A stretch of 64,000 bases of DNA, from the IMG/VR virus record IMGVR_UViG_3300010149_000010; one strand, given 5' to 3'. The notes beneath the pieces were generated by a model that did no database searches, was not told where the DNA came from, and saw only the letters and a program-made list of their open reading frames with translations. The DNA is from a virus. The position numbers were made by a program, and so were the translations under genes. Positions 3 through 59,056 of the stretch are shown here, one piece after another. Each line of letters starts with the position of its first letter. Position 1 is the stretch's first letter.

Positions 3-3000
3 GTTCATACTAATATTTCTGTTGGCTCTAAATCTTAAAGTTTCAATTTGATCCCCGAACTTAGATAGATGCGGAGACCAATCGTTAGGGCTTAGACCCT
101 CTTGACTCCCATCCAGGTCTTTTCTATTGTTTATGAAGTTTACACTTACTGCATTTATCATGTTATGTGAGGAAACAATAACATTATTAGACACAAGGTT
201 TCTCTTTGAAGAAACCAAATGGAACTGCCTAAAAGGCACAAATCTATCTTTTGTCTTTTTTATAAAATAATCGTACGCTTTTTCAGTAAAGAATTTTTTT
301 AATTTATCACCATTACTGCTATCTGTGTCATTAGACAAGGCCAATTCTCTTGGAAAGAGCTCGCCTATATTTTTCATACTTAAAGCGCCACCGTTTGCTT
401 CTTTCAAAGCCACATAGATAGCGTTGAGCTTTCTTATTTGGTTATTTGATATTTTTTTAGACCAGTAACGTTGACTTGGAACTCCAAAGAAAACTCTGTA
501 TTCAAGGCTATTCCCATATGGTCGAACCCCATAAATGTACCCAGGATGTCGCAAAGTGCATTCATGCAATATGTCCCATATTGTTTGTCCATTTACTATA
601 AACGTGTTTTCGTACTGAGCGACATCTAGCCGCTTATCTACCAAACTAAAAGGACTCAATTTTAAATCTTTCAGCTTGGAATCATTTGTTATGTTAATCA
701 TTCCCCATGTACTGTTGTTTATGAGTTTTTTACTTTCTTTGCTCATTGCTTCGACCCACTCTGAACCAGCAGAAGCCAATGAATCCCAGTATGAGTACGT
801 GGTGCTTGGTACATTTATCATATATTGTTTAGGGTGCGGAGAGAAAATATTGTCATCTTGTGGAGATAGAAGTTTCTTTTTCTTCAATTTATTCTTGTCT
901 TCGCTAAAGCTTCCTAGCATGCTGTAATACATAAATTTAGCAGAATCTATTATTACGTCTGCCCCTGCCAACATTACTGAAGTGACAAGCCCTCCTGTAA
1001 ATCCAACCGCAAGCGGCAAGGTAATACTACTGTAACCTCTTGCAAGAATATCAACGCCAATCTTTGACCCTAACCAAGTCTTTGACATTAAAGATGGTCC
1101 CAACCCACTCATTCCTAAAGCGCCAAAACCTCGCTGCTTTACGATTACTTGCTTTAAAAACTCTTCTCCAAGCTTATTCCCAGCCTGATATTTACCCGCT
1201 GTAAGTATCTGCGCAATCTTTTGGAATAATGTAACTACAGAGCCATTTAAGTAGCCATGCGCAATAACATTAGATCTTAAAGCTGCAAACCTCCCTCCAG
1301 TATTTACTACTAAGCTATTAAGCCCTCCAATGGAATTCAATTTAAGTGCTTCCATACCAAGCGGACCAAAAGTTCCAGGAGCTAAGTTGTACCTATTTGC
1401 GCGTATTAGATATTCTAACGCGTCATCAAAAGTATTTATAACTGGAGCGTATCCCGCTAGTTGTGCTGCTAAGGGATTTTTTGTTGAAGATCGCGCTACA
1501 AGATTAGATAAGTTTTGCGCTCGTTTAATAATTAAATCTTTAGCTCTTTGGCTTATTCCAAATGGGTTAATAAAGCTAATAGGCTTTACAAAAACAGCAT
1601 TAACGTAACGCCCAACACCCCTAGCAAAAGCTGCACCTTTTCCTGCACCAGCATACCAGCTTGTTATCTTTGTAACAAACGTTGTCTTGGCTCCCATTTT
1701 TAATAATGGCATGCCAAAAGTAAGCAATCCAACACCAATACCAATACCAAAAGTATTATCTGATACCCAATCAAAGAAGTTTCTACTTAAACTAAAATTA
1801 AAACTACTTTCTTTTTTATATATATCTAAATCTAAAGAAAAGTCTTTGTATTCGCCAAATTGAAATACTGCACCCACCTTAGATCTTCCGAAATGCTTCA
1901 ACTCATCGCTTAACATCATGCTACCTAATAATTGATGTGTACTATAAAAAGCATGTGCACTATTTTTATTTTTATTTCCGTTGCCTTTCCTCAAGGCCGT
2001 GAGCTCAACACCAAAACTTTGTACAGTGATATTACATATACTATTATTCTGCGCGTAATTTATGTCTGCAATCTTGCCTGAGATAAGCACGTCCAGCTCG
2101 TTAGTGTTGCTTTCATAACCAGCTCTAAGTTGAACAGTTACTCCTGGTCGAAGCACTATACTATCAATAAAGTTGCCTTCTTTTTTGAAGTTTTCTTCTT
2201 TTACATTTGGGTCTAGATCAACGTCTCTTAAAGCTCTTTTTTTAGTCCCATCTAGCACTCCGGAAATGTTTTGTAATTGTATAGTGGCTGTAGAGGCTGC
2301 TAGCTCTCTTGAGTTGTGAACATTAAAGCTAATTACAGAGTTGTAGTAAAAAAAATCATCGAAAGCAGTTAATCGATCTGTATAGATTTCGTCCTCTTCA
2401 ATTAGATACAGTCTGAATGTTGGAAAAGCATTTTTCATGGTTTTTAATTTGTAAATATTTTTACTGCTATCTTCAGACAGCCCCATAATGCTTTCTTTTC
2501 CGTAATCCTGCTCTATCTGCTCGCCTAATGTACGGTTGAGTTCTTTGTCTCCAGATTTTTTAATCTCTTTTAAGAAATCGTCTTTAATTTTAAAACCAAG
2601 ACTACTGCCAAAAGCGCTACTGAGCCTGCTAAGCTCCTTATTATACCTAGAATCAATCGCTTTGTTTGTTTCGGCTACTGTCTTCGTTACGGTTTTTATT
2701 ATTGCAGGTACAGCATTACTACTTGATGAGACCATGCTTTCACTCACAGTTACATTTATTTGAGCTTCTTCACTTACTTTTTCCGTGTTGTCAAACACAC
2801 CAATTTTAATTGGCGCTCCATAAGCCATCTTTTTCTCGTCTGATTCTCCAGTAATCATAAACTCAGAGATAGATCTCAAAACCTCTGTGCTATCCACAAG
2901 CTCGTTCACTATTTTTGTAGCAGATTCATTTCCTTCAAGCTTACTTTCAGGGCCAGTAAATATTCCATTTCTCAATCCTTTTTGAAACTGAATTGAGCTA

Positions 3001-6000
3001 TTTAATATTTTGTCTGCAGCTGCAAATTCTTTTTCTTTTGCAGACTTAACCATTGTGTCTAATATGTCATTACCGTCATGGTAGTAGAAACATGGAGACA
3101 AATTGGAATTGCTATAAAGATTATTAGGATCTTGAGGCAAGTCAATATCTGGGTAAGCATTTTCTTCTAGAAGTTCAAAAACGGTACTTCCATCAAGTAC
3201 TTTTAATAAAGTTGCATCTCTTGAATTTTCTACTATTTTTGGGTTTAAAGACATGTGCTCTTCTAAAATTGCGCTCAGAAGTTTCCTTAAGTAAGCAATT
3301 TTAAATCTATTCTCATTCTTTAAAGCTTCTTTCCCTTTGATTGTATTGAAATATTCTTTTAAGCCGTTTTTATTTTTTATTTGATAAGTGACTAGATATG
3401 GAAATCTATTCTCATTCTTTAAAGCTTCTGGATCCGATTTAATTTGAGCAGGATTCCTTGTATTAGGCCAGTAATATGGATCACTCTCTGATTGTTTTAA
3501 ATAAGAGATAGTCTTATTTGTTTTATCTATTTTTAAAATGTGATGATGATCTTCTTCATCAGGACCGGTCGTATTTACAGCTGGAAAAGTGAATAAAAAT
3601 CTTAAGTAATTTTTCATTTCTTTTAAAGTTAGTTCTTCTGCAAGCGCAAAGTTGGCCAACTTTGCATTTATATTTCCATTTTTATCATAAATGCCTTCGC
3701 TGTCTTTAAGGCTTCGTCTTATTAAATTTAGAGCTCTGCTTGATGCATCTAATTCAGACGCTACTTTGTTGAATTTTTCAAATATACTGAGTTCAGAAAA
3801 TATTGGTTTGACGTGATTGTTGATTCCGCTGCGGACCGTATCCGCACGACCTATCTCAGTTAAAAAATCTCCAATCTTTCGCCCGCCCTTAACACTTATA
3901 TTTACTCCTTCTCCAATAAGAAAATTCTTATTTTCTTCAAAGTATTTAATATAGAGTTTAAAGCTCTCTTTATCCTTTAAGAATTTTCCATGGGAGGCCA
4001 TGCCTGCAGTCACTCGTTCTAATTGCGATTTACCTTGACTATCTAAATTGCCTCCTAAAGCATCCCAAACACCATACATTTCAAGTGCTAAAAATACGCC
4101 ACTAATAACCCACCCTGCAGGGTTAATCTTGGTACCAGCAAAAAACAACGCTTGACTAATTCTATGGAGTGTTATTCCGGTGCCTATAGCACTTGCAGTT
4201 AGTGCAACTCCTTTTGTTGATTTTGAGATGTTGTTCGCTTCGCTCAGTATGGCTCCTGTGCTTAAACTTGTAACTCCCGTGAAAAGCCGCTCTGTGGAAG
4301 TATAAAAAGCAGGCAATACAGGAAAATTGTATAGTTCTTTTTGAATGAACTTCATTTCATCTTCAAATTCTTTGGCAGAATCTGTGTAGAGGTAAGGCTC
4401 CGTCAACATTAACGACGCCAACTCAGTAAAGCTTTTTAAAAGCTTATTGTTATTTAATTTAGCTCTAGTTAATGCATCTCTCTGAGCGCTCTTTGCATTT
4501 ACTTCTCCTACATTAAAGAATAATGATTTTGATTTTAAATCACTTTTATCTGTTATTACCCTGCTAGCAAACTGAGTTTTGGCCACTCCACTGAATCTAT
4601 CCATTCCTAGAGAGCCTGGAACTACGCTTTGAACTGTTTTAGTGCCATACTCAGTTGATGTTTGTATGTTTACTTTTAGCTCTTTCCCGTAATAACGGGT
4701 TACAGCTTTTATTACAGCCTTTTGTTCTTCACTTAGTTTCTTTTTGCCTTTGGGTGGAAAGAATTTTATCTCATACTTATTACCTGCTTGGGATATTTCA
4801 AAGTTGTATCTTCTCACTTTCCTCTCAGGTATCACTGCTTGAAAAGTAATCGATGCAGGCGTTACTGTTTCTTGATAAAGACTCTTTATTGCATTAGTAT
4901 CTACTAGATTATTATCTGACAGGAAAGTAATAAAATCTTCAGGCTTTGTAGAGGTTAGCTTGTATGCTTCTATATCTGCACTCTCTCTTGTGTCCTCCTT
5001 TAAAGCGGTTTTATCTTCTTTAGCTAAATCCCCTTCCTCTATTTCTTCAGCTTCATCATTGTCTAAATCACTTGATTCTTCAACTGCATCATCATTTGTT
5101 GGTAAATCGCCACTATCGAATACTTCATATATTCTTGGGAGCAAATATTGCACATCGTATTTAGTTCCATGACTGTGACTGTGACTTACTATAGTATAAC
5201 TGCCATCAATTACTGTCGCTAAAGGTACATCTCTAGAGTTAAGATTAGGTTCATCAGTCAAATCGTTGCTAAACATTTTTGGGACACTAGGAATCCCTGG
5301 AACAATCCTATGAAGCTCATTAATAAAGTGGCATGCAGCTTCAATTAGCTTATCTGGGAACTTTAATATCTGCCTTGGCCCGTCTGGGCCTGGATTATCA
5401 ATTACCTCAAACCCATATCTTTTTGCATTAGACGTTACAGGAGACAAAGCAAAATCAAAACCTATTGAGTTTGCATTAAAATTCCCCGCATGATTTGCTT
5501 GGTAGGCTGCGTCTACCATTTGGCTAGCAATTATAGTTCCATCTTTTTTATAACTTATACCAAAGTGACTACTTGTCGTGGTACCGGCCCATGTTCTTTT
5601 TAGAAACTCTGCGTTATGTCCACCATGGTGCAACATAATAAACTTGATATCATCGAGATCCCTCGGAGCTCGGCCAATCTGACCATCTGCATGATCTGTC
5701 TGTATGTTTATCTTTTCGTTTTGAGTGAAGTTTTCAAACTCAAATAAACCTCTAGTGTCTATTTCATAGCCTTTACCATTTATTATGACGCCTTTTTGGT
5801 CTTGTTGCTTGTAATACTCTTTTAAAGCGTCGTCAAAGCCACTTTTTCTTATATAAGCTTTAATAATAGCTATGTCTTCGTTCCAAAACTTCTTTTGATC
5901 AATAAACCGATACGGATCTTCTTTACCTCCCCATCGTCTTCTACTATCTCTCACATTCCAAGAAGAACCAATTTTATTTGCATGGTTAACAACAAAGTTT

Positions 6001-9000
6001 ACGTCTAAATGTATAAAACTACCTGCAGTGTTGGGCATAAGGTTATCATTAAAAATAGCTGCAGTGGGACCGGCGTTAGCGCCGGTCCCACTAATCCTGC
6101 CGCTTTGTCCCCCAATAGCACTACCGTAAATACCTATTCCAAAAATCCTTCTTCTGTTTCTTTTACCTTTTCTTTTGCCTATGCTGTCGAAGAAGAATCT
6201 TCTTTCTTCCAAGAGTTCAATTATTGCAGCTGCTTCACAAACATTCATATTATTTATGTATATGTCTGCAGCCCCACCTGTGAAGTGATTAGAAGCTGTA
6301 TCTCTGCTTCGTCCATCTAACTGTCTATCTAATGTAGAAAACGCATTGATAGCAAAATTCTTAGGGTTTGTTCCACTTATAGCTCTATGCTTTAAATAAA
6401 TATTTAAAAACTTCTGTAACGGGTCTAGGTAATCCTTACAAAATTCAAAAGCATTCTTATCTATATCCCCTACGAGTATTTTTTCAAGTCCTTGATTTTT
6501 AATCTGCGTCCTTAAATGCTTTTTTGAATGTGCATAGAAAGACTTCGCACCGAAATATATAGTATTCCAGTAATGATTTACATATTTGGCCGTAGAGTAC
6601 GACCTGGCATTACTGCTAACTGCACTTCCTCCTTGAGGACCAATATTAATGCCGCTTTGCTGAATTACTGAAGCGTACCTGCTTAAATAATTCTCATCTA
6701 CTTCGGAGCTTTTTGCCGCCCTTACTTCCTCTTCATCATAACACTTACTTTCACTAAAGCGTAAATTCAATCCAACCGCTCCCGGTGAACCTTCAATAGT
6801 AAATGTATCTACAGAAGAAATTAAAAATCTGGGTTTTATATCTCTGATTACAGCTTCTTGCTTGTTGTTAAACTCGACGACTTTTTCATCATTGTCAGCA
6901 TATTTAAAAGATCCTACAAGTTTTGTTATTAATGACTCAACGACAATATTTGCAGCGTCAGGTATTTGAGGAAAATTCTTAGCCATGTAAGCGGTATGCG
7001 CTCTGACGTTTTCTAATTCTTTGATTTTCGGAGGAAGCCCGTCACCAATTCCAGTGTACCCGATAAAATTAAACTGATAGCTAGGTTCTATGCTACCTAG
7101 AAACTGATGCGTAGGGTATTCATAACCAAGTACAGGAATAGAGCTGATAATGTTTCTCAAGCTACAAGAAACGTTTGTTATATCTTGCTCAAACTTTGGA
7201 AAAGAATCGCTGTTTACTCCGAAAGTATCCTTACCTGTGATCGCTTTAACATCTTCTTCAAACAAGTTAGAGTCGAATGAAAGTATCAGTGCTTTTTGAA
7301 AAACATTCTCTAGGCCACTTCGATACTGGTACTGAGAAAACCCTTCTTCTTCAATTACTCTTTTAATGGAGTTAATGTAAGGTAGATCCTTTTCAGTTAA
7401 ATATGTTTCGTTATCATTGCCTAATGAAACTTTAGAAACAGACCTTTTAACGACTTTACTGCTTTTTACATATTTTTCTTCTAAAGCTTTCCCAGTTAGT
7501 GTTAAGCAAAGATCATTTATTAATTGTCCACTTGCATTTATTGTAAACTCATTGTTCGTGTCAAAGTATCCAACTATTGTTCCCGCAGGAAAAACCTTTC
7601 CTTCTTGAGCCTTAATCCAATAACGCAAGTTCTCTTGCTCTTGTACTCCGCTGTATACTATCTTTTCTTCTTTTACACCACTTCCATTTGTAATAATTAT
7701 TTCCCCATTATTACTGTATGTGATCTTACCAGCTCTGATAGTCATTACTGCAAAAGCTAAATTGCTTGAATTGTTTTCATCCCATTCCTGAGTATTTTGA
7801 ACTTTATAGCCAGCGTTTGAAGTGCCTGTTATAAAAACATTACTACCAGGAGAATAATACCCAAAAGCTTGTAAAGATCTTTGTATTGGTAAAGAATATT
7901 CTTGAGAAATCGGGTCTATAGCTAGCCTTAAGTCTCTATCTTGTGGCGCACTTAAAGTTAAACCAGAGGTTACTGGTTTTGCTTCATTAATTACAGCTTC
8001 TTTTTTAGCTTCGTAGTCTTTGAAAAGTTTAAAGATTTTCTGTTTATTTTTTTTTATAACTTCATTTTGACTTTTTTCATTCATCCCTTTCACAATGCCT
8101 TTACGCAGACTTTTTCTGTGCCTGAATAGGAAGTTCCCCCCTAAGTTTAAAGACTTGTATTCCTTTGTCACAATTCTCGTATTAAGTCCACTCAACAGTA
8201 TCGAATGCGTCAGGTCTTTTCTGAACTTTAAAAGTTTATCATTTTTAATTCCATTAACTTTTAATTCGTGAATCCCTACTACGCTTGGTCTTTTAATGTT
8301 GCCTTCATACGCAGTACCCTGAAATAAATTGTAAACCTCTTCGTCTACAAATACCTCGTTTGGAACAAACTCTTCAATATTTTCCGTCCCTTTAACTACG
8401 TTTATTCCAAAACTTTCGTTTAAATATTTCAATTGCAAGAAGTTCGAATACCGTTTGTAAGCATTCGATTTTCTTGGGTCCGTAACAACACTTCTGCTTC
8501 TCGAAATAGCTTGTCTTGATAAGCTAAGAGGATTGTTACCATTAGGAGGGCTTAAGTCTCTTATTGTATTATTGCTACGTTTTAAATTTTTGCTGTATTT
8601 TAAAAGCGGCTTTCTTTGATCGGGCGTGCCTTTATATGTTGGGAAAATGGAATGCACATATTCTTTCACGCTTCCCTTATCTTCGACTTTCACTGTGTAG
8701 TCTTTTCTAAAGGTCAAAGATCTTCCAAAAGGTTTGTAGTTGAAATACCTTAGATCTAATTCTACTAAAAAAGCACCTGGCGAGCTAGGGTGGTTTGCAA
8801 TGTTCAAACCAAACACAGTAAAATAGTTAATTTGTGTAGCTACTGCATGGGTGTCTGATATGCTTTGCTGTATGAAACTATTTTGAATAGACACAAAAGG
8901 GTTGTTTCTTACTTGAGAAATCAATCGGTGCAAAAGTAGCAATGAGTCTGGTGCAAAAGTAATGCTAACCTGCGCGTGATAGTTACCATTTCCTGAAGCT

Positions 9001-9161
9001 ATTTTTGTGGAAACTCTAGATCTTAAAGTTTTCCACGCATATTCCAACCCCTCTTTATGCACTGATATTGCTGTAGGTGGAATATGAAGCTCAATATCGT
9101 TAATTACAAAATTAGCTTCTTGAGAATTAAACAGATCAGGAATGTTATTCAATTCACGCAT
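3..9161 (-). CDS. Giant baseplate hub / tail-tip protein (>3053 aa, runs off window start) with Peptidase M15-like and Amidase_2-like peptidoglycan hydrolase domains
   Basis: ATG at 9161 directly after the stop of the 2395-aa gene (MRELNNIPDLFNSQEANFVINDIELHIPP...). Frame checked open at 9161, about 6285, 6009, 5628 and 3-60, and the track lists no stop-terminated minus ORF here. SNHFTGGAAD...GIGIYG...FIHLD at about 6000-6370 (M15 HxxxxxxD/HxD). IMLHHGG...SSHFGI...HAGNFNANSIG...IVSH...KYD at about 5150-5660 (amidase Zn ligands). AFPTFRLYLIEE...LRPGVTVQLRAGY...ITVQSFG at about 2010-2435 resembles a hub domain. Confidence 0.8.
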   Translation of the reverse strand, partial: MRELNNIPDLFNSQEANFVINDIELHIPPTAISVHKEGLEYAWKTLRSRVSTKIASGNGNYHAQVSITFAPDSLLLLHRLISQVRNNPFVSIQNSFIQQSISDTHAVATQINYFTVFGLNIANHPSSPGAFLVELDLRYFNYKPFGRSLTFRKDYTVKVEDKGSVKEYVHSIFPTYKGTPDQRKPLLKYSKNLKRSNNTIRDLSPPNGNNPLSLSRQAISRSRSVVTDPRKSNAYKRYSNFLQLKYLNESFGINVVKGTENIEEFVPNEVFVDEEVYNLFQGTAYEGNIKRPSVVGIHELKVNGIKNDKLLKFRKDLTHSILLSGLNTRIVTKEYKSLNLGGNFLFRHRKSLRKGIVKGMNEKSQNEVIKKNKQKIFKLFKDYEAKKEAVINEAKPVTSGLTLSAPQDRDLRLAIDPISQEYSLPIQRSLQAFGYYSPGSNVFITGTSNAGYKVQNTQEWDENNSSNLAFAVMTIRAGKITYSNNGEIIITNGSGVKEEKIVYSGVQEQENLRYWIKAQEGKVFPAGTIVGYFDTNNEFTINASGQLINDLCLTLTGKALEEKYVKSSKVVKRSVSKVSLGNDNETYLTEKDLPYINSIKRVIEEEGFSQYQYRSGLENVFQKALILSFDSNLFEEDVKAITGKDTFGVNSDSFPKFEQDITNVSCSLRNIISSIPVLGYEYPTHQFLGSIEPSYQFNFIGYTGIGDGLPPKIKELENVRAHTAYMAKNFPQIPDAANIVVESLITKLVGSFKYADNDEKVVEFNNKQEAVIRDIKPRFLISSVDTFTIEGSPGAVGLNLRFSESKCYDEEEVRAAKSSEVDENYLSRYASVIQQSGINIGPQGGSAVSSNARSYSTAKYVNHYWNTIYFGAKSFYAHSKKHLRTQIKNQGLEKILVGDIDKNAFEFCKDYLDPLQKFLNIYLKHRAISGTNPKNFAINAFSTLDRQLDGRSRDTASNHFTGGAADIYINNMNVCEAAAIIELLEERRFFFDSIGKRKGKRNRRRIFGIGIYGSAIGGQSGRISGTGANAGPTAAIFNDNLMPNTAGSFIHLDVNFVVNHANKIGSSWNVRDSRRRWGGKEDPYRFIDQKKFWNEDIAIIKAYIRKSGFDDALKEYYKQQDQKGVIINGKGYEIDTRGLFEFENFTQNEKINIQTDHADGQIGRAPRDLDDIKFIMLHHGGHNAEFLKRTWAGTTTSSHFGISYKKDGTIIASQMVDAAYQANHAGNFNANSIGFDFALSPVTSNAKRYGFEVIDNPGPDGPRQILKFPDKLIEAACHFINELHRIVPGIPSVPKMFSNDLTDEPNLNSRDVPLATVIDGSYTIVSHSHSHGTKYDVQYLLPRIYEVFDSGDLPTNDDAVEESSDLDNDEAEEIEEGDLAKEDKTALKEDTRESADIEAYKLTSTKPEDFITFLSDNNLVDTNAIKSLYQETVTPASITFQAVIPERKVRRYNFEISQAGNKYEIKFFPPKGKKKLSEEQKAVIKAVTRYYGKELKVNIQTSTEYGTKTVQSVVPGSLGMDRFSGVAKTQFASRVITDKSDLKSKSLFFNVGEVNAKSAQRDALTRAKLNNNKLLKSFTELASLMLTEPYLYTDSAKEFEDEMKFIQKELYNFPVLPAFYTSTERLFTGVTSLSTGAILSEANNISKSTKGVALTASAIGTGITLHRISQALFFAGTKINPAGWVISGVFLALEMYGVWDALGGNLDSQGKSQLERVTAGMASHGKFLKDKESFKLYIKYFEENKNFLIGEGVNISVKGGRKIGDFLTEIGRADTVRSGINNHVKPIFSELSIFEKFNKVASELDASSRALNLIRRSLKDSEGIYDKNGNINAKLANFALAEELTLKEMKNYLRFLFTFPAVNTTGPDEEDHHHILKIDKTNKTISYLKQSESDPYYWPNTRNPAQIKSDPEALKNENRFPYLVTYQIKNKNGLKEYFNTIKGKEALKNENRFKIAYLRKLLSAILEEHMSLNPKIVENSRDATLLKVLDGSTVFELLEENAYPDIDLPQDPNNLYSNSNLSPCFYYHDGNDILDTMVKSAKEKEFAAADKILNSSIQFQKGLRNGIFTGPESKLEGNESATKIVNELVDSTEVLRSISEFMITGESDEKKMAYGAPIKIGVFDNTEKVSEEAQINVTVSESMVSSSSNAVPAIIKTVTKTVAETNKAIDSRYNKELSRLSSAFGSSLGFKIKDDFLKEIKKSGDKELNRTLGEQIEQDYGKESIMGLSEDSSKNIYKLKTMKNAFPTFRLYLIEEDEIYTDRLTAFDDFFYYNSVISFNVHNSRELAASTATIQLQNISGVLDGTKKRALRDVDLDPNVKEENFKKEGNFIDSIVLRPGVTVQLRAGYESNTNELDVLISGKIADINYAQNNSICNITVQSFGVELTALRKGNGNKNKNSAHAFYSTHQLLGSMMLSDELKHFGRSKVGAVFQFGEYKDFSLDLDIYKKESSFNFSLSRNFFDWVSDNTFGIGIGVGLLTFGMPLLKMGAKTTFVTKITSWYAGAGKGAAFARGVGRYVNAVFVKPISFINPFGISQRAKDLIIKRAQNLSNLVARSSTKNPLAAQLAGYAPVINTFDDALEYLIRANRYNLAPGTFGPLGMEALKLNSIGGLNSLVVNTGGRFAALRSNVIAHGYLNGSVVTLFQKIAQILTAGKYQAGNKLGEEFLKQVIVKQRGFGALGMSGLGPSLMSKTWLGSKIGVDILARGYSSITLPLAVGFTGGLVTSVMLAGADVIIDSAKFMYYSMLGSFSEDKNKLKKKKLLSPQDDNIFSPHPKQYMINVPSTTYSYWDSLASAGSEWVEAMSKESKKLINNSTWGMINITNDSKLKDLKLSPFSLVDKRLDVAQYENTFIVNGQTIWDILHECTLRHPGYIYGVRPYGNSLEYRVFFGVPSQRYWSKKISNNQIRKLNAIYVALKEANGGALSMKNIGELFPRELALSNDTDSSNGDKLKKFFTEKAYDYFIKKTKDRFVPFRQFHLVSSKRNLVSNNVIVSSHNMINAVSVNFINNRKDLDGSQEGLSPNDWSPHLSKFGDQIETLRFRANRNISMN

Positions 9162-9164: not shown

Positions 9165-12100
9165 TTAATCTCTCATCATTTTATTAATATAGGCATTACC
9201 TATCGGCCTTCTATTGTCGTTGACAGTCAGTGACGCCTGCCCTCCAGCCGATACAAAGTGCTTGCCCATAGTTTGAGCTGCAGAAAGGCTTGGAGCCTCT
9301 CCGTACATCTTAATTGAACGATTCAATGATACAGTACTCACTCCGCTATTGATAGGTCTTTCATAAAAATTATCAATCCCATTTATCTTACCTGGGCTTA
9401 CGTTTCCGTGCTCTCTACTAAAACTTTGTTGCAAAGCTCTATTGCTTAAACCTTGCCCCGCTTTTAAAGCTTCTTTAGAGATAGAATCGGAAAATTTACC
9501 TCCAGGTTCAAGCGAGCTGCTTGGCGAATTTGCTCCCACAGCATACGAAGCCAAAAGCGAACCTGCAATTACTCCAGCCAAACCCTTGCTCCTGCTAACG
9601 GTTTCGCTAAAAGCACTTCTAGCAGAATCTACTTTAGAAAAAATCGATTCTATTTCATCAAGCTCGCCAGTAATCACTCCACCTTCCATTGAAAAACCCT
9701 TGTTCATTAGTTGGAACAATTGCTGGCTGTTAAACCTAGAAGAACCTTCTAATTTTCTTCCAAGTGCCTTGTTAGATGTAAAATCGTTAAATCCATATTT
9801 TTTTACATTTCTAGCCATAACATCAAAAGAGTCAAATATTTCTTGGACATTTAAATTTACGTCTCCTAGAGCTTCTCTAAACTTTTTCGTTGCATTACCT
9901 TCTCCTAAGTTATGGAACTCAATTGACTTTGCATCTATTTTTAAGTTGCCTTCAGCATTTTCCAACAAAGTTCCTTTGAATATCTTGTCCTGGAAAAAGC
10001 TTTTTAGAGCATCGCCCTTACCCGTATTAAAAGATGTTTTTAAAGCACTTAGGTATTCCCTAGAAATGTTAGCAGCAATCGGAAGCTTCTTGCCTTTAAT
10101 TCCTAAAACTTCTTGAGCCACTGATATTAAAGCTGCTCCACTTTGAATTTTTTTAAATTGAGCTGCAAAATCTCCACTAGTATCATCTGCAGCAGACTGT
10201 GCAAGTCCCAGCATTCCTGCTTTAACTTGCACATCTAGACCACCAATTCCCTTTACTATTTGTTCTTTCTGGTACTCGTCTACAATGGACTGAGCAACTG
10301 TCATTTGTGAGGCTCCCATGCGCTTCCCTAGCTTCTCTACACCTTCCCCAAGCAGGCTCATGTTAGTTAGAAACTCTGCACCATAAGTGTACATTTTTTT
10401 TGCGTCGATCCCTTGGTTTTTCATTTTATTTTTTAAAGTCTTGTCTACATCAAAAAATACCTGATAAGGATCCGCGTCAAAGTCTCCAATGCCAAACCTT
10501 GCAAAATCCATGCGCCCAGAAAAGGCAGTCCTTTTACCTGTATTTACATCTTCTATTTGCATGCTCATGTCTATTTGAGGAAACCTTACAGTCCCTCCTC
10601 CATGCTCGCCTTTCTCTAAGTGCTTGTTAAGCATATCTTTATATATACCACCATAAGCACTAACTTGCTCTTCGTTTAGTTTTCCGCTTTCTTTCAACAA
10701 TCTTAGTTCAGCCAAATCGGCACCTGTTTTAACTTCTCTTCCCAAAACATCGTCTAGGATTTTTAAAGGCCTGCTTATACCAGGCGCTCTTGGCTGAGTT
10801 TTGTTTCCTTGAAAATCTGTATCTAAACCGCTTACTTCAGGAGCGTTGTTCATTATTTTTTCATCTATATCTTTTATAGTTATATCACCTTCATTTTCTA
10901 TTGATTCTTTTTGAGCATTTTCTATTAATTGTTTTTGAGCTTTGATTTCGTCTTCTTCTTGATTTAATCTTTCTATTTCTTCGAAAAGCGCTTTTCTGCG
11001 TTTTTGTTTACCCCTAAAAGGGTTTTTTTCCATTTCGTTAAGATCGCGCGTTGCTCTTTGTGAAATTTCTCTTTGTGAATAGAAATTTGACGCTCTATCT
11101 TTCACCTCTGACATTTTTACTTCTTCTCCTCTAGCTTCTCTTCTGATTACATCGTAGGCGTCTATCTTTGTAGCTTGAGGCGCAAGAGTGTAATTGCTGT
11201 TTTCATTAAGGACTTTTCTTACCCTTCCTCTGTTTCGAGAACTTATCCTCTCTAAGAACGGTTCGAGACTTTCTTCTGTAACCATGCCTTTTTTTCGTGC
11301 CGCTATAATTTCTTCAGAAACTGCTGGCCCCACTCCTTTTAGCTGCATCAATTCCTCTTTTGTTGCTAAGTTTAAATTCACAACACTCGCTCCACCACTT
11401 CTTACTTCTTTTATCCTCTGCGATATTTGCTCCCTATTCATATTGATTTTGCTCCGACCCTTGTTGTCAGGTTGAGCTAGTTCTTCTAAAGGGTTCAATT
11501 TACTCCCCGTTTGATTTCCATACTCATCAAGTAAGGGTACGTTTTTTCCAGAAAACTTTCTTGCTAAAAACTCGTTTTCAAAGCCTTCCAAGCTTCTCAA
11601 GTGAGTTTTATTGTCAGCATTAAAACCAAAAAAAGGTCCCATTTCGTTTATGAATCCAATAGCCTCTTTTTTATTTTCGAAATGCCTAAAAGAAGATGTC
11701 AACCTACCTTCATCTACACTCCTTCCATATGCTCCAACGTCTTCTATAGTTTCTGTGAACTCTCTTTCTAAACTACGTCTTATGTTTCCTTCAGAGACAT
11801 CACCGCCTCCAAGAACAGCCCTTCCGTAAACGTCTTTATTTTTATCAGCAGCGGTAATTTGTTCGTTAATTTTATGTATTTTATTATCAATAATTTTTGC
11901 TTCTTCATTAAGACCTTTAAGTTCCTCTGCCTTTTTGCTATATTCTGTAGTTTTTGTTGAACCAGCTTTATTAAACTTCTTAATTTGTTCAATTATCGGC
12001 TCGGCCTTTTTTTTTATTTTTGAAAACTGATCTTGCAAAAGAGCTACTTTACTATGACGTTTAGCTTGTGCTGCACCTACGTCTTCAGCAAGAAGGTTCA

Positions 12101-15100
12101 AATTACTTTCTTGAGGTAGGTTTCCTGAAAATACACCATGCCGCCTCTCTATAAACCCTCCAGGTTCTTCTAAAATCTTTGAAGCATCTCGCCTTTTGTT
12201 TAAAAGGGACTCCCTTTCAGCAACAAACTTTTCGTAACCTTCTTCACCTTTTATACTGGCTCTTTCTTGTTTGATTTCTTGCCTTTTGGCATAAACTTCT
12301 TGCCCCCTAGTATAAACAGCATCTCTTTCATCAAGTTTTTCTAAACCAGTAACCCCTTTTAATATTTCCGAAACTTTATCTTGGTTTAATGATTTTCTAA
12401 TCTTTTTAAGATGCTCTACATAATCCGGTGTAAACTCTTCTCCTTTTTCTACATTTCTTAAAAACTGTAGTGGTTTTAGCTCTTTTTCAAAATCGTATTG
12501 ATAAATACCCATGCTTGCAAAAATGTGTGAAAAACCTATGAGAGGATTTCTTTGTATCGTTCCAGAAATTCCTTCTTTTTTGCTTCGATGCATGCCAGTA
12601 AAAAAGGCTTCCAAAGTCTCTTCCATTATTTTGTTTGTTTCTTTTTTGGTAGAGACTTTACCTTGAGAAGCTAAATGTTTATTTATTGCTGATTCGTAGG
12701 TACCCATTCCATCTAGGAAAGCCTGTTGATCCATAAATGCAACATAGCCCATTTCTTTGTTTACCACTTCAGACAAAGAGTCTACAATTTGCTTTTGAAC
12801 ATTCAGATCATCGCTAAAGATTGTAGCTCCAACGCCTTTTTTTCCTAAAGTGAACCCACCTCCCATATAAGAGCCTGATCCTAAGATTTTACCACTTAGT
12901 GTACTCCTGATCGCTGTACCCGTTATTTTGCTTAATCTTTTTCTAACTTCAGTAAAGCCTGAAATTGATTTTTCGATTTCATCTTCATCAGTTCCAGCAT
13001 CCTTCAACGAAGATAAAGATGATAGCAAGTCTGTAATATTTCTTCCGTATTCAGCTTCTACTTTTATGACTTCATCACTCGACCTGATCTCATGGCCTAA
13101 AAACCCTTGAAAGGTATCTTCTCCTGGGAGAAATATTTCTTTTTTGCCTCCAGTAAATTCGTACAGCCTATCCAGCCCCTCTTTAGAGAGGCCCATTTTT
13201 TCTAAATCAAGTATGTTCCCTCCTTTCCTGGCAGACAGTTTTTCAACGACTTCTTTCTCTTTGCCTTGCCCAAGGTCTAAAAGTTCAGTTACCTCTTCTT
13301 CGGTTAGTTTACCAACATCGCTTAAACCTGATATCTGCTCTTTTATATTTGTTGCATCAAGCTTTCCAAGAGATTCTTGTGTCAGCTTCATTCCCATCAA
13401 GCCTCCAGCGCGACTTTCGAATCCTTCCATTCTGGTTATCATTGAAGAAACGTATCCCGTCGCTTCTTTTGAATCCATCCCCCAAAAGGATCTTAAAGAA
13501 GAATAAAGATAGTTCGCAAACCTTGGTTCAGCCTTAGCTACGCTTCTGCCCAGGTCTGTATGTGGAGTACCAACAGTTCCAAACGCAGCACCGATTACCA
13601 CACCTCTTTTTGCTGTCTCTTCGATTTTACTTAAATAGGGATCAACATCAACTACACCCGCGTCTTTTAAACCCGCAGCTATTTTTCTTTCAAAATATTC
13701 TAAGTTTAAACCAAACTTTTTATTGCTTGCTTGGTTTCTAGCATAAGACATTACCATTCCAAAATGATCAGCACTTATTCCTTCATCACCAGCCCTTTTT
13801 GCAATTGTTTGAAAGAACTTCCCTAAAGTTGAAGCGCTTTTTTGCTTTGCAGACACTTGGTCTACATTTGTTAGCGTGCTTTTAAAATCACCCAATTGGT
13901 TGTCATTTATTTCGGTAAGCAATTCATCTGCATTGTCTAAAGACCCCATACTAGTATTTAATGCTTTGTCCATTGCTGCTTCATCCAACCCGAGCATCTT
14001 CATACCTCCGTGTATCTGCGTACGCAGATACCCAGCAGACTTTCCCAATTGAGCTGTTGTGGTAAGCAAGGTGTTCTCTATCCTTCCCCCAAAACCGTCT
14101 TTATTGAAAAACACCTCTCCAATGTCACGAACACCCAACTCTTCCAGTTTCTTCAACATAGAAGATTCATTAATTGTAAGCGTTGTGTCTTTGGCTAAAG
14201 AAGAGAATAGTTTGCTATAATCAACGTCTTGCAACACTTGGCCTTTAAGATGGTAGCGGTCCCTTCCTGTTTCCATGCTTTTTTCAGAAAGCCCAAGCGT
14301 AAATCTTTTCATACCTTTGTGACGTTTGATGTGCACAATTCTGTCGTCTTGTTTTCCTAAAACAGCACGCCCTTCAGAATCTCCAAATTGTTTGAAAAAA
14401 TCATCAATATCGTAATCGTCACCATCAACGAGTGAACCTATAGTTAAAAACTTTCTGTTATTGTCTTTTGAAGCATTTAAAACTTCCGTCAATAACTTGC
14501 TCTGGTTAATACCTTCTTTGTTTATGGTTTTTGTATAACCTTTTTTAACCTGAATGGTGCCCCCCATATAACTCATCCCTTCACCAAGGCCTAATTGAGC
14601 AGCAGGGTTTTTTATTTTTTTTGCTCCGTGTTGTGCTTCTTCAAGTTTTTCAAAAATCATAATAGCGCCAAAGTTTACGCCTCTGATATTTTTAGATACT
14701 TCCTTATCACTGGTGATTCCAATCAATTCATTGCTTGCCCCAGATATTTTAATGTCTCCCTTTTTTCCAAAAGTAGCGTCTCTTTCAACACCTGCAAACC
14801 CTGCTGCTAATTCGGGTCTTCCGTAAACTTGACCAGCACGCGCTGTTTGAGGCACTAAACTGCGGTCCAGTCGCCCATACCTTTTCATCGCATTGAAGGC
14901 CGTTTTTGTTTTTGTTCCAGAATCATTCTCCAGTCGCTCAATATGACCTACTATCATTTCTCTTTTTAAATCAAATGGATCCTTAAATCTAGAAGTCAAA
15001 GTTTGCGAACCTGAAGTACCTCCATAAATTTCTGACTCATATTGAAGTATTTTTTTCGTTACTTGCTCCCTGTCTTTTTGTGCAAATTTTTCCAGTCCAG

Positions 15101-16352
15101 CAATTCTATGTATTGATGATTGAAAAGCTCGAGAATCTATAAGTGTAGACATCAAGTCTTTGTCGATTAAATTTATTTCTTTTCCACCATTAATTGTTCT
15201 GCTTGAATTCAATCCTTCAATCATTGTTCTTGGGGTCTCTATTGACATCGACCTAATATAGTCATTGTACTCATTTATATTTGTCACGCTAAAATTTTGA
15301 AAAGACTGTTTGTTTTCTTTTATCAATCCAAATAAATGATCTTCTAAGCTCATTGTAGCGTCTTTTAGCGCAGCTGCTGCCCCAGTCCCCTTTGGGGTTG
15401 CTAACTGATTCAAATCTAAACTAGGGAAAATTTTTGCAGCGTCTATTACACCCCCACTAGTAGTGTACCGTGTAGACATATTCTCCGTCCCTCTTATTAT
15501 TGTCATTCCAGATCTTGGGTCTTTAGCCAGGTCTAAAGCTACGTTTTGAAACCTCCCACTGCTATGCTCTACTCTCGCATAAGTAGACTTACCTTCACCT
15601 GGTCCATACTCTTCTAAAGATACTAATTGTATATTCTTTCCTGAAGCCATGGATTTAAGTTCCCCATATTTCTTCGTCGCTTTTCTACTCAGATCACTTG
15701 TCGATGCTGACTTCCACTCTACAGTGGAGGTTCCTTCTGTTGTGAAATCTTTGAAGGTGGTATTGAATTGGCCTTTTGTTTTCATCATTGAAGAGTGTCT
15801 TTTTTTGAATTCTTGCAACTTTGGACCGCTAGTACTTACACTACTTTTATAAAAATCAATAGCAGTCCGCATATCAACCTGTTCGATGTTTCCTGTTTCA
15901 ACACCTTGGTACAGTTTTTCTAACGATGCTTTTAGTGATCCCGAATCATCAATCATGCTTTCGCTAGCAGTATCAAAAAGTGCTGACAAAAAAGCCCTTG
16001 CTTCATTTGCGGAAGATGTTTCATTAAACATTCTTTCTAGGTTCTCACTACTTAAAATCTCCTCTTTAAAAGTTTTAAGTGCTACTTTCCTGCTTTCGTT
16101 TACAACACTCTTTAACCTTTCAGCATCTTTTCTAATTATGCTTCCTGCCCGACCTAACTCATTTTGCGAAGCAGAAGAGTTCTTTAAAGCCCCTAAGCTC
16201 TTCTTTACACCTGATGTTAAATTTACATTCTCGTTTAACAGGTAGGCTGTCCCAGCCACAGCAGCGGCTCCTATTACTGTGCGTCCAGTGTTTTTTATAT
16301 TCGACACTTCTTTATCTTTTTGCTGCTCATTTAATAGATTTATTAAAGACAT
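9165..16352 (-). CDS. 2395-aa tape-measure-locus protein, candidate virion (tail-delivered) two-barrel RNA polymerase with ComEA-like HhH insert
   Basis: GIGDFDADPY (10470-10484, D1957/D1959/D1961); QRNP (12543-12551); upstream GLGEGMSYM and KLFSSLAK; downstream KGIGGLD and AQEVLGIKGK; HhH VNLNLATKEELMQLKGVGPAVSEEIIAAR (about 11290-11382); lies between the tape measure and hub genes. Confidence 0.65.
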   Translation of the reverse strand: MSLINLLNEQQKDKEVSNIKNTGRTVIGAAAVAGTAYLLNENVNLTSGVKKSLGALKNSSASQNELGRAGSIIRKDAERLKSVVNESRKVALKTFKEEILSSENLERMFNETSSANEARAFLSALFDTASESMIDDSGSLKASLEKLYQGVETGNIEQVDMRTAIDFYKSSVSTSGPKLQEFKKRHSSMMKTKGQFNTTFKDFTTEGTSTVEWKSASTSDLSRKATKKYGELKSMASGKNIQLVSLEEYGPGEGKSTYARVEHSSGRFQNVALDLAKDPRSGMTIIRGTENMSTRYTTSGGVIDAAKIFPSLDLNQLATPKGTGAAAALKDATMSLEDHLFGLIKENKQSFQNFSVTNINEYNDYIRSMSIETPRTMIEGLNSSRTINGGKEINLIDKDLMSTLIDSRAFQSSIHRIAGLEKFAQKDREQVTKKILQYESEIYGGTSGSQTLTSRFKDPFDLKREMIVGHIERLENDSGTKTKTAFNAMKRYGRLDRSLVPQTARAGQVYGRPELAAGFAGVERDATFGKKGDIKISGASNELIGITSDKEVSKNIRGVNFGAIMIFEKLEEAQHGAKKIKNPAAQLGLGEGMSYMGGTIQVKKGYTKTINKEGINQSKLLTEVLNASKDNNRKFLTIGSLVDGDDYDIDDFFKQFGDSEGRAVLGKQDDRIVHIKRHKGMKRFTLGLSEKSMETGRDRYHLKGQVLQDVDYSKLFSSLAKDTTLTINESSMLKKLEELGVRDIGEVFFNKDGFGGRIENTLLTTTAQLGKSAGYLRTQIHGGMKMLGLDEAAMDKALNTSMGSLDNADELLTEINDNQLGDFKSTLTNVDQVSAKQKSASTLGKFFQTIAKRAGDEGISADHFGMVMSYARNQASNKKFGLNLEYFERKIAAGLKDAGVVDVDPYLSKIEETAKRGVVIGAAFGTVGTPHTDLGRSVAKAEPRFANYLYSSLRSFWGMDSKEATGYVSSMITRMEGFESRAGGLMGMKLTQESLGKLDATNIKEQISGLSDVGKLTEEEVTELLDLGQGKEKEVVEKLSARKGGNILDLEKMGLSKEGLDRLYEFTGGKKEIFLPGEDTFQGFLGHEIRSSDEVIKVEAEYGRNITDLLSSLSSLKDAGTDEDEIEKSISGFTEVRKRLSKITGTAIRSTLSGKILGSGSYMGGGFTLGKKGVGATIFSDDLNVQKQIVDSLSEVVNKEMGYVAFMDQQAFLDGMGTYESAINKHLASQGKVSTKKETNKIMEETLEAFFTGMHRSKKEGISGTIQRNPLIGFSHIFASMGIYQYDFEKELKPLQFLRNVEKGEEFTPDYVEHLKKIRKSLNQDKVSEILKGVTGLEKLDERDAVYTRGQEVYAKRQEIKQERASIKGEEGYEKFVAERESLLNKRRDASKILEEPGGFIERRHGVFSGNLPQESNLNLLAEDVGAAQAKRHSKVALLQDQFSKIKKKAEPIIEQIKKFNKAGSTKTTEYSKKAEELKGLNEEAKIIDNKIHKINEQITAADKNKDVYGRAVLGGGDVSEGNIRRSLEREFTETIEDVGAYGRSVDEGRLTSSFRHFENKKEAIGFINEMGPFFGFNADNKTHLRSLEGFENEFLARKFSGKNVPLLDEYGNQTGSKLNPLEELAQPDNKGRSKINMNREQISQRIKEVRSGGASVVNLNLATKEELMQLKGVGPAVSEEIIAARKKGMVTEESLEPFLERISSRNRGRVRKVLNENSNYTLAPQATKIDAYDVIRREARGEEVKMSEVKDRASNFYSQREISQRATRDLNEMEKNPFRGKQKRRKALFEEIERLNQEEDEIKAQKQLIENAQKESIENEGDITIKDIDEKIMNNAPEVSGLDTDFQGNKTQPRAPGISRPLKILDDVLGREVKTGADLAELRLLKESGKLNEEQVSAYGGIYKDMLNKHLEKGEHGGGTVRFPQIDMSMQIEDVNTGKRTAFSGRMDFARFGIGDFDADPYQVFFDVDKTLKNKMKNQGIDAKKMYTYGAEFLTNMSLLGEGVEKLGKRMGASQMTVAQSIVDEYQKEQIVKGIGGLDVQVKAGMLGLAQSAADDTSGDFAAQFKKIQSGAALISVAQEVLGIKGKKLPIAANISREYLSALKTSFNTGKGDALKSFFQDKIFKGTLLENAEGNLKIDAKSIEFHNLGEGNATKKFREALGDVNLNVQEIFDSFDVMARNVKKYGFNDFTSNKALGRKLEGSSRFNSQQLFQLMNKGFSMEGGVITGELDEIESIFSKVDSARSAFSETVSRSKGLAGVIAGSLLASYAVGANSPSSSLEPGGKFSDSISKEALKAGQGLSNRALQQSFSREHGNVSPGKINGIDNFYERPINSGVSTVSLNRSIKMYGEAPSLSAAQTMGKHFVSAGGQASLTVNDNRRPIGNAYINKMMRD

Positions 16353-22412: not shown

Positions 22413-22877
22413 TTATTTAAGATTCTTAAATTCTATTGATCTACTTAAGAAACTATATTCTTCTAAAAGCACTTGTTCAGATATTTGAACTGTTTGCCCT
22501 CTAGAAATAATATAACAAGTTTTTAACACAATGTAACTTTGATCTCCAAATCTTATTTTAATATCAAACGCCTCTGTTAAAAAACCATTAAATGACATCA
22601 TCTCCGCCCGGCTTGAGACGGTAGAAAGAATGTCATTTATTATATAATCTGGTTTTACATAATTTACAACAAAATTACCTTGCACGATTTCTCTTCCTGG
22701 GAGCATTGCATCGAATTTTGTAGATGCGTATCCGTAAACAGGTTGTTGAGAGTTCTGTATGCTATAACTTATCCCTGCACACTCCAGCACCTCTTTGTAG
22801 CCAAGTTCTTTATCTGCATTTTCGAATGCAATAGATACATTTGCTCCAGAAAAATATTCGTAATTATAAAAACTCAT
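22413..22877 (-). CDS. Tail tube-like paralog (154 aa), possible tube initiator
   Basis: FSGANV / ISYSIQNSQQPVYG / GREIVQG / FDI motifs align with the tube protein motifs YSGVDI / LSYAIQREKAPIY / GKRGIAG / FDV. Confidence 0.6.
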   Translation of the reverse strand: MSFYNYEYFSGANVSIAFENADKELGYKEVLECAGISYSIQNSQQPVYGYASTKFDAMLPGREIVQGNFVVNYVKPDYIINDILSTVSSRAEMMSFNGFLTEAFDIKIRFGDQSYIVLKTCYIISRGQTVQISEQVLLEEYSFLSRSIEFKNLK

Positions 22878-22880
22878 AAT

Positions 22881-23798
22881 TTATCTTTCATATCCATCGA
22901 TCTCTACGCTTGTAGTTCCGAATTGATTTGGTTGAGCAGCTGGTTGCTGACTTTTATGACTGTTAATCAATTGCCTATAATACGGTTCATATAAGTCTTT
23001 GCCTTTGTGAGCATTATATGCATTGATAATTTCTTGAGAGGTTTGTTTGTTTAAATCAGTAAATGGTCTTACGTCTTGCGCTACGAACTGACAAACGACT
23101 TCAGTCACCATGTCATTTACAGAAGTAACAATACCTTCATTTACAAACTCTACACCTTCTAGCATCATAGATGCACCAGCGTCAGCAACCCCATTCCTAG
23201 CTACTTCAGTTTGATATCTAAGCATAATATTCACTGGTGATATTAATGTAGATATTTTATTATCAAATCTAATTTCACCGTACCCTGATCCAACCCCTTT
23301 CGTTTCTAAGTCTCTGGACCAGCCAATTAGATTGTTGTAAATGTTAGCAGGATCTTTTGCGGCCAACATTCTTAATGGATGGTCTTCTATTACTAAAAAC
23401 ACTATAGTTCCAGCAATAGTTCTAATACCACGAGTGTATCCAGAGACACCTCTTTCGCCAATCCTCCTTACGGGGGACTTGGCTTCATGTATCGAAATGG
23501 ATATCGTAGCCATTTGTGTTAAATGCACTGGAGTGAAAAAATTAGGGTTTGCCACTTCCTTGCTTGTGTCGTAAGTAGGGTCCAATTTTGGAACTCTACC
23601 AAAAGGGTTTTGGCCTCCTAAATAATGTCGCGTGGTATTTTGGAATAGCGTCCAACCAGCAACCTTAGTTTGATTAGCTGCTGCATTCTCCACTGCAATA
23701 GCTTCTATCCCTTCCCGCAACCCATCACTTCCAGGAAAAAAAGCAAACGCATCACAGTCTGATCCAGAATAGCTATATGTGTAATTAGCGCTACTCAT
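22881..23798 (-). CDS. Tail tube-like paralog (305 aa)
   Basis: YSGSD, ISISIHEAKSPV, RGIRTIAG, LEGVEFVNEG...SVND match motifs of the 290-aa tube protein. Confidence 0.65.
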   Translation of the reverse strand: MSSANYTYSYSGSDCDAFAFFPGSDGLREGIEAIAVENAAANQTKVAGWTLFQNTTRHYLGGQNPFGRVPKLDPTYDTSKEVANPNFFTPVHLTQMATISISIHEAKSPVRRIGERGVSGYTRGIRTIAGTIVFLVIEDHPLRMLAAKDPANIYNNLIGWSRDLETKGVGSGYGEIRFDNKISTLISPVNIMLRYQTEVARNGVADAGASMMLEGVEFVNEGIVTSVNDMVTEVVCQFVAQDVRPFTDLNKQTSQEIINAYNAHKGKDLYEPYYRQLINSHKSQQPAAQPNQFGTTSVEIDGYER

Positions 23799-25487: not shown

Positions 25488-25490
25488 AAT

Positions 25491-25545
25491 ATTACCCCAG
25501 GCTAAAAAGTTATTACTATTTATAACATTTATAGCTTGGGGTAAT
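25491..25545 (-). promoter_or_regulatory. Long intergenic stem-loop occluding the RBS of the 562-aa gene; TATAAATA within it
   Basis: ATTACCCCAGGCTA...TAGCTTGGGGTAAT inverted repeat (14 bp, 1 mismatch, plus inner GTTAT/ATAAC) ending 3 nt before the ATG at 25487. Confidence 0.6.
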
Positions 25546-25562
25546 CTACAATTAAGTTTAAC

Positions 25563-26435
25563 TTACTTGCTGTAAGTAAACCGTGAATCTGCATTAGCCT
25601 CCTTACCCGGTTGACCTTCCCTTACTGCATCTTTATCGTGGTGGTCATATAGTTCATCTCTTGCAGATTTTCCTGAGCTACCATTCAAAGCGAAACTTCT
25701 CCAAGGTAGAATCGTTCGACAAACATAAGTCATTTGATTCTCTATTACAATGTCGTCTATAGAAAAACCTGAACCCTCATTAAGAATTTCACATCCATAA
25801 AGACGCATCTGCGCAGATTGACCATACTCATTCGCAGCAACAATAGTTACATCAAACGGTAAGATCTGGTCTACATAAAATACTTTTGCAACAGAATAAT
25901 TGTTACCTAAGTTATCTAACTCATATGAACGTTGAGGATCAAAGCGTTGAGTTGGTCCGCCACTAAATTCTACGCTCGCGGGATCATTACCAGGAAGTGT
26001 CCGAAGTAATCTTCCTGCAAGATTACCATCAACATCTTTAAGGCTAACGGTAGAAGTTTCATTATTTGCATTATTCAAAGCGCTTGTGTTGTAATTAGTG
26101 ATGCTTTGATTATTCGTGCTAGACCCCCCCGCTTCACCACTGTAGCTAGGGAAAATTTCGTCTTTGTCAAGGAGAGCACGCTCACCAGTAAACGATGGCG
26201 TGTAAAGCATATGCACGTCCATCATAAGTGAGATCATCGTACCAGCAATACCACGCTTACCACGAGAGTAAGAAACGGGGTCTACTGATCCCATAACATA
26301 GATGGGTGCTTTCTCGCGCTGGATAGCGTAAGACAAAGCTTGCATACTGCCTGCTTGTGCACCGTTAATAATAACTCTAATATCAACACCTGAATAAGAT
26401 GTATAGGTTCTACTTAAGTCTAATGAAGTTGCCAT
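25563..26435 (-). CDS. Major tail tube protein (290 aa)
   Basis: Directly downstream of the sheath gene; strong RBS (AAGGAG); tube-type motifs YSGVDI, REKAPIY, RGKRGIAG, LPFDV. Confidence 0.75.
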   Translation of the reverse strand: MATSLDLSRTYTSYSGVDIRVIINGAQAGSMQALSYAIQREKAPIYVMGSVDPVSYSRGKRGIAGTMISLMMDVHMLYTPSFTGERALLDKDEIFPSYSGEAGGSSTNNQSITNYNTSALNNANNETSTVSLKDVDGNLAGRLLRTLPGNDPASVEFSGGPTQRFDPQRSYELDNLGNNYSVAKVFYVDQILPFDVTIVAANEYGQSAQMRLYGCEILNEGSGFSIDDIVIENQMTYVCRTILPWRSFALNGSSGKSARDELYDHHDKDAVREGQPGKEANADSRFTYSK

Positions 26436-56184: not shown

Positions 56185-56187
56185 TAC

Positions 56188-57568: not shown

Positions 57569-57599
57569 ATTTTATCCTAGAAAAGTGCTATGTTTTCGG

Positions 57600-59022: not shown

Positions 59023-59056
59023 GTAAAACAATCAAAAAAGTATTTATGTTTTTTGG

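Follow-up and report, generated by a model that had tools for sequence, protein, structure and literature searches.

Does the second of three giant genes in the tail module of a marine-type phage encode an RNA polymerase (RNAP) whose active site has been split by a large insertion? The question arises at positions 9165-16352 of IMG/VR virus record IMGVR_UViG_3300010149_000010, of which a 64,000-nucleotide stretch (the window) was analysed. The protein in question, P0001, carries an arginine motif and an aspartate motif typical of two-barrel polymerases, and these are far apart in its chain. The best overall explanation, to which we assign a probability of roughly 0.7, is that P0001 is a single-chain double-psi beta-barrel (DPBB) RNAP that is carried with the tail and transcribes the earliest genes. 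Virion RNA polymerases allow a phage to begin transcription independently of the host enzyme.

Conserved motifs of the P0001 family

The initial annotation of the window placed R-N-P at residue 1268 and D-F-D-A-D at residue 1957 about 690 residues apart, as against about 90 in a second polymerase-like protein of the same phage. The distances are 689 residues in P0001 and 92 residues in the other protein (R889-T-P to D981). By composition, 0.39 DxDxD and 2.1 RxP motifs are expected in P0001, and two and five are seen. Bare motifs at this chance level prove nothing by themselves; what gives them significance is their conservation among homologues, together with the predicted fold.

A word-indexed search recovered nine relatives of P0001 (30-72% identity). 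All of them keep the RNP and the Asp triad unchanged, and conservation across residues 1300-1900 is poor. The C-terminal 516 residues, used as the query of an exhaustive profile search, extended the family to at least 115 clusters (50% identity), all of them metagenomic. The query domain is always C-terminal in these relatives, which are 1,647-3,265 amino acids (aa) long, and a DxDxD occurs at the same place in every full-length member. Conservation was counted across 80 full-length relatives with 17-72% identity. Each of D1957, D1959 and D1961 is present in all 80, as is P1270, and R1268 is present in 79, so the check on RxP and DxDxD conservation proposed in the annotation comes out in favour of both motifs. 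Position 1276 is usually His (53) or Asn (24).

The annotation had also remarked that all three Asp residues of the loop are kept and that Ala replaces Gly. In the alignment this fourth position is Gly in 44 relatives and Ala in 34. Close relatives have DFDAD or DYDAD; DxDGD prevails among the distant ones, where the second position can be F, Y, W, M, H, Q, N, S, V or A. Judged from the alignment, Ala is a normal variant of this family and no sign of decay; the DFDID loop of the phi14:2 virion RNAP had been correctly cited as a precedent. The residues expected for catalysis are invariant or nearly so, while those between the Asp positions vary freely, as would be expected of an active site that selection maintains.

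Two upstream motifs had been put forward as parts of the second barrel. KLFSSLAK is strongly supported as its two-lysine motif, with K714 in 80/80 relatives, F716 in 77/80, and Lys (76) or Arg (4) at position 721. GEG survives in part as the acidic motif: G592 is kept in 77/80 relatives, but position 591 is acidic in only 53 (Glu 48, Asp 5). Further conserved residues flank the aspartate loop, both before it (G1918, 78/80; G1920, 79/80; P1925, 64/80) and in the module after the barrel (K2029, 76/80; E2030, 78/80; G2037, 79/80; E2081, 78/80; K2088, 79/80). A DYDID at residues 646-650 (14403-14417, minus strand) was considered as a second active site and rejected. It is conserved only in the closest relatives and is mostly gaps across the family, and by this alignment it would mislead polymerase calls that rely on motifs.

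Routine searches give no hint of this family. Pfam and PHROGs yield no polymerase signal in any of the three giants; in P0001, Pfam recognizes a helix-hairpin-helix alone and PHROGs has no match. Both phmmer and profile searches of Protein Data Bank (PDB) sequences with P0001 return ComEA only. No sequence-detectable homologue occurs in cultured phages, either by tblastn with two parts of P0001 against 50,697 phage records or when the genomes of ME3, 0305phi8-36 and MTATph1 were searched with a profile. P0001 would represent a further two-barrel polymerase family, found in metagenomes only and missed by Pfam, PHROG and GenBank-phage searches.

Predicted fold and the hypervariable site

The annotation had predicted that the insertion lies within the catalytic barrel. 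A natural short relative, P0016 (1,814 aa), has only 144 residues between its conserved Arg and first Asp and is predicted to fold as a two-barrel RNAP. It is a natural counterpart of the construct lacking residues ~1290-1920 that the annotation had suggested modelling. Its residues 480-1679, modelled with a 60-sequence alignment, gave a predicted local distance difference test score (pLDDT) of 88.7 and a predicted template modelling score (pTM) of 0.88. This model was compared with 48,161 chains by a method independent of Foldseek. Among the 50 matches listed, two-barrel RNA polymerases account for 14 of the top 17, with beta/Rpb2-type subunits aligning to model residues 1-420 and beta'/Rpb1-type subunits to 482-1175. 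A designed 86-residue double-psi barrel (7dww_A) aligns over 82 residues (root mean square deviation 2.4) within model residues 642-913; the R-N-P strand (752-759) falls in this region, as does the DxDxD loop (902-906). The invariant Lys pair falls on strands 203-215 of the model. Foldseek against the PDB gives weak E-values (0.02-0.1), mostly to Rpb2/beta chains. Fold relatives in BFVD come from uncultured Caudovirales, a siphovirus 'minor tail protein', Acinetobacter phage ME3, and the Microcystis phages LMM01 and MaMV-DC.

In the P0016 model, the strand that ends in the conserved Arg is followed by a second strand and by the five helices of the short insertion. The chain then passes through the GGG, the F-P strand and a hairpin to a short helix, from which the Asp loop leads into the last strand. 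A 35-residue helix, a candidate bridge helix, follows the barrel. The strand order around the insertion is identical in a model of P0001 residues 1140-2339 (75 sequences; pLDDT 82.9; pTM 0.57, a low value that is expected with a flexible arm), and the long helix in the post-barrel module of this model may be a bridge helix. Both structure searches with the P0001 model were dominated by coiled-coil and SMC-like matches and were uninformative on the barrels. For P0001, the polymerase assignment therefore depends on collinear homology with P0016. The family as a whole combines a DxDxD-bearing barrel, a second barrel with two basic residues and a fold match across both barrels. Taken together, the alignments and models make it very probable that P0001 is homologous to two-barrel polymerases and that its active site is intact; the polymerase core covers residues ~486-2250 of its 2,395.

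A single site, which lies after the RxP strand and before the DxDxD loop, accounts for almost all of the twofold length range of the family, because the flanking distances are stable. The Lys motif lies 475-650 aa before R1268 in 78/80 sequences, and the first Asp lies 410-457 aa from the C-terminus in 79/80. By comparison, the stretch that separates R1268 from the conserved GGG ahead of the loop ranges from 75 to 1,452 aa across the 80 sequences and is 650 aa in P0001 and 105 aa in P0016. The catalytic region of this family thus tolerates insertions of up to ~1,450 residues at a single site. In P0001 the inserted segment (~630 aa) is one that about 75% of relatives lack, and the models and alignment make it likely, with somewhat less assurance than the homology itself, that it separates the RxP strand from the Asp loop of the catalytic barrel.

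The annotation had pictured this segment as a large coiled coil with a helix-hairpin-helix (HhH) domain. The HhH and the helical hairpins are borne out, and the structure search returned antiparallel coiled-coil matches. A single long coiled-coil 'ruler' is rejected, as the model has hairpins whose longest helix is 44 aa. The HhH is recognized by Pfam (HHH_3 at 1656-1689, E 6e-07, over the curated cut-off), and ComEA chains match it in sequence as well as in fold (for 8dss_B, the fold match has a probability of 1.00). Ten other insertions of the family showed no such domain, so it is not a family-wide feature of the insertion, and by sequence it is confined to the close subgroup of P0001.

Table 1. 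Predicted modules and motifs of P0001 and landmark genes of the window (residue numbers are those of P0001 unless noted).
Feature	Position	Strand	Basis
Whole polymerase-homologue gene, 2,395 aa	9165-16352	-	Open reading frame; 115 relatives; predicted fold
N-terminal region, residues 1-480, kept within the family	14913-16352	-	Family alignments
Beta/Rpb2-like module with second barrel (DPBB-B), residues ~486-935	13548-14897	-
GEG 590-592, conserved Gly, acidic residue partly conserved	14577-14585	-	Conservation counts
KLFSSLAK 714-721, two-lysine motif of second barrel	14190-14213	-	Conservation; strands 203-215 of P0016 model
Helical connector joining the two barrels, residues ~936-1150	12903-13547	-	Helices 428-634 of P0016 model; stable K-to-R distance
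Catalytic barrel (DPBB-A), part one, residues 1152-1288, LSGKILGSGS through R-N-P strand and next strand	12489-12899	-	P0001 model strands 20-28, 123-129, 138-146
R1268-N-P1270, conserved RxP of the family	12543-12551	-	Conservation counts
Lineage-specific insertion in barrel, residues 1289-1915, helical hairpins and HhH	10608-12488	-	Model and alignment
ComEA-like HhH DNA-binding domain, residues ~1652-1698	11259-11399	-	Pfam HHH_3; ComEA sequence and fold matches
Catalytic barrel, part two, residues 1916-1968: GGG, F-P strand, beta-hairpin, DFDAD loop, last strand	10449-10607	-	P0001 model strands 782-828
D1957-F-D-A-D1961, predicted metal-binding loop	10470-10484	-	Invariant Asp in alignment
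Helical module after barrel, residues 1969-2250, motifs KEQIVKGIGGLDV and AQEVLGIKGKKLP	9603-10448	-	P0001 model helices 845-872 and following
Conserved C-terminal tail, residues 2251-2395	9168-9602	-	High conservation; pLDDT below 50
Third giant, >3,053 aa, cut by window end	3-9161	-
First giant, 1,465 aa	16354-20751	-
Sheath-like protein, 974 aa	26460-29384	-
Capsid protein	33240-34586	-
Portal	38779-40266	-
Terminase	47708-49915	-
Second polymerase-like gene, full length 2,174 aa in P0133	60003-63998	+

Tail module and proposed role

The window belongs to a large tailed phage. After the sheath gene, a run of smaller genes leads to three tightly abutting giants (1,465, 2,395 and >3,053 aa). 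P0001 is the second of them and consists mostly of a globular polymerase fold; its N-terminal region (residues 1-480) has no Pfam or PHROG match. The first giant lacks hydrophobic segments and matches nothing in Pfam, PHROGs or the PDB. In four relatives, the polymerase gene comes after a gene of 1,360-1,465 aa, of which a fifth copy is cut by a contig end. The third giant carries an Amidase_2 domain (1171-1283), an endolysin PHROG match (2193-2400) and two hydrophobic segments (2471-2491 and 2713-2738), and its counterparts in relatives have Peptidase_M23 instead. P0001 itself lacks a hydrolase domain, and none of its segments exceeds the threshold for hydrophobicity. BLASTP among the three giants finds no similarity and no shared terminal signatures. 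The same order recurs in four relatives: sheath, five or six small genes, a ~1,400-aa giant, the polymerase giant, and a ~3,000-aa giant with Peptidase_M23 or Amidase_2. The insertions of these four polymerases range from 75 to 1,452 aa, and the lengths of their neighbours are constant. Describing the locus of P0001 as a tape-measure locus is apt in that the gene lies among tail-gene giants, but it is loose, as the third giant looks more like a tape measure than either of the others.

Other genes of this minus-strand block stand apart from the polymerase question. Four consecutive genes after the sheath (22413-26435, minus strand; 290, 562, 305 and 154 aa) all match PHROG 9206, which is labelled major head protein, and they are probably paralogous tail or decoration proteins. 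A 1,361-aa protein (51020-55105, minus strand) with a staphylococcal-nuclease domain at 1055-1163 is encoded directly upstream of a 366-aa open reading frame (49917-51017) and the terminase gene. The 'moraphage' lineage was considered and rejected, as the paper on it describes a different, T4-like group.

The phage pairs P0001 with a second, unrelated-looking two-barrel polymerase. The second protein resembles P0001 in having an R-x-P...H followed by a DxDGD loop (DNDGD, 981-985) and a ComEA-like HhH (residues 636-685) that is 48% identical to the P0001 HhH over 27 aa. It differs in that its HhH lies before the RxP, whereas that of P0001 lies after it, and also in its short R-to-D distance; its gene is on the opposite strand, in a region of higher G+C content. 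Aligning the two families with hhalign gave no significant profile similarity (E 0.2, with only the DxDGD loop aligned). The gene lies in a distinct part of the genome: G+C content is 0.34-0.43 in the minus-strand structural block (1-56000) and 0.47-0.51 in the plus-strand block (56000-64000), and near 56 kb the sign of the GC skew flips and the genes switch strand, giving two compositional compartments in one phage genome. Within the plus-strand compartment, a three-copy element (57607-57643, 59065-59101 and 59875-59911, plus strand) occurs upstream of genes at 57688, 59176 and 60003, the last being the second polymerase. It comprises a G+C hairpin with a T-run, a conserved AATTTAC...TTTAATGGAG box, and a further hairpin in which the stem changes compensate each other (GGATG/CATCC, GGGGG/CCTCC and GGAGAG/CTCTCC). 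The arrangement resembles a terminator with a promoter-like signal after it.

In the alignments and models, P0001 runs from a beta-like module with the invariant Lys pair K714 and K721, through a helical connector, to a beta'-like catalytic barrel and then to a bridge-helix-like module, with the R1268-x-P strand and the D1957-x-D-x-D1961 loop of the barrel split by the ~630 lineage-specific residues. The Asp triad would bind the Mg ions needed for catalysis. By analogy with their cellular counterparts, beta K1065/K1073 and beta' R425 in Escherichia coli, the Lys pair and R1268 could contact the substrate and the RNA 3' end, and the inserted arm may add non-specific DNA binding. P0001 would be produced late and either incorporated in the contractile tail or carried along with it, as would its two giant neighbours. 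It would then enter the cell at infection and transcribe the earliest genes, including the second polymerase gene at 60003. For delivery with the virion and early transcription we have only a slight preference over other roles, on the basis of gene position and the precedents discussed below.

The link to the virion is the position of the gene in a structural operon, which is circumstantial. P0001 could instead be an active RNAP that is made late, is not packaged and acts in the cell on late or middle genes, with early genes left to the 60003 polymerase or the host enzyme. We regard this as unlikely, given that the gene lies between two giants, one of which has a cell-wall hydrolase and hydrophobic segments, that this order is kept in distant relatives, and that the known virion-module polymerases, phi14:2 gp66 and P23-45 gp96, are packaged (gp96: PMC10770324). 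The tape-measure neighbourhood, the 'minor tail protein' label of BFVD relatives, and a mostly helical site of 75-1,452 aa that recalls tape measures would also suit a structural tail or ejection protein, that is, a catalytically dead polymerase shell whose variable insertion serves, for example, as a length ruler. This reading is less probable still: the expected catalytic residues are invariant or nearly so across the family, the insertion is made of short hairpins and not of one long rod, and the neighbouring genes keep constant lengths next to a third giant with better claims to be the tape measure. A further proposal is that the insertion is a functional arm that differs between lineages, for example an HhH that holds incoming DNA, a device for docking in the tail tube or a measure of tail length. 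This is also unlikely, but if it is true, a contractile-tailed phage would carry a polymerase that doubles as a structural element of its tail.

Two remaining alternatives concern the active site itself. The best structural matches of the family include RNA-dependent RNA polymerases, and a two-barrel enzyme with that chemistry, or with primase-like or PolD-like DNA polymerase chemistry, is conceivable but very improbable. The genome is that of a double-stranded DNA tailed phage, and the tested phage members of the clade (YonO, gp66, gp96 and gp64) are reported to copy DNA (gp96, gp64: PMC10770324). PolD is not among the matches listed for the P0016 model, which does not exclude it. The idea with the least to recommend it is that the barrel is not split at all, R1923-F-P1925 being the true RxP and R1268 belonging elsewhere. 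In bacterial beta', the RxP lies ~34 residues before the Asp triad. R1923 lies 34 residues before D1957, in line with this spacing, and P1925 is fairly well conserved. Position 1923, however, is Arg in only 11/80 relatives (Tyr 24, Phe 13), far below R1268 and P1270, and even the shortest relatives keep at least 110 aa between the conserved Arg and the first Asp. R1923-F-P was rejected as the RxP on these counts.

Relation to known two-barrel polymerases

To our knowledge, only a few kinds of virion RNA polymerase have been described: those of N4, of phiKZ/AR9, the crAss-like gp66 and gp96 of P23-45. The family of P0001 would add features of its own, namely sheath-bearing phages, a separate chain beside a hydrolase-bearing giant and a hypervariable insertion in the catalytic region. 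Its natural short forms, such as P0016, are ready constructs for biochemistry and structure work.

By fold, P0016 fits the eukaryotic RNAi polymerases RDR2 (7w84) and QDE-1 (7y7p), with which sequence identity is 9-10%, better than it fits gp96. Relative to these enzymes and to the YonO clade of phages and prophages, P0001 extends much further at its N-terminus, its connector is longer and its barrel carries the insertion; it is also encoded in a phage structural operon. Gp66 of Cellulophaga phage phi14:2 (PDB 6VR4; 2,180 aa) is likewise a giant, virion-module, single-chain, QDE-1-like two-barrel protein with a residue other than Gly at the fourth loop position. It comes from a podovirus, its connector between the barrels is ~140 aa as compared with ~500 aa in P0001, and it is not known to have a large insertion between RxP and DxDxD. 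Gp66 gave no profile match to the P0001 family and is not among the 50 matches listed for the P0016 model, an absence that does not exclude similarity.

The nearest precedent for the concept is Thermus phage P23-45, in which gp96 is a two-barrel virion RNAP fused to the tape measure and gp64 is a second, non-virion two-barrel RNAP (Chaban et al. 2024, PMC10770324). Gp96 has 5,002 aa, of which the N-terminal ~1,100 form the polymerase, and it carries membrane and metallopeptidase domains in the same chain (PMC10770324). P0001 has its own chain, with hydrolase and hydrophobic segments in the next gene, a DFDAD loop where gp96 has DFDGD, and the 630-aa insertion in the catalytic barrel; its phage bears a sheath, whereas P23-45 is a siphovirus. 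Despite these differences, the two genomes appear to share the scheme of a tail-module polymerase plus a second polymerase, which would mean that it is found not in one thermophilic siphovirus alone but also across a broad set of aquatic phages.
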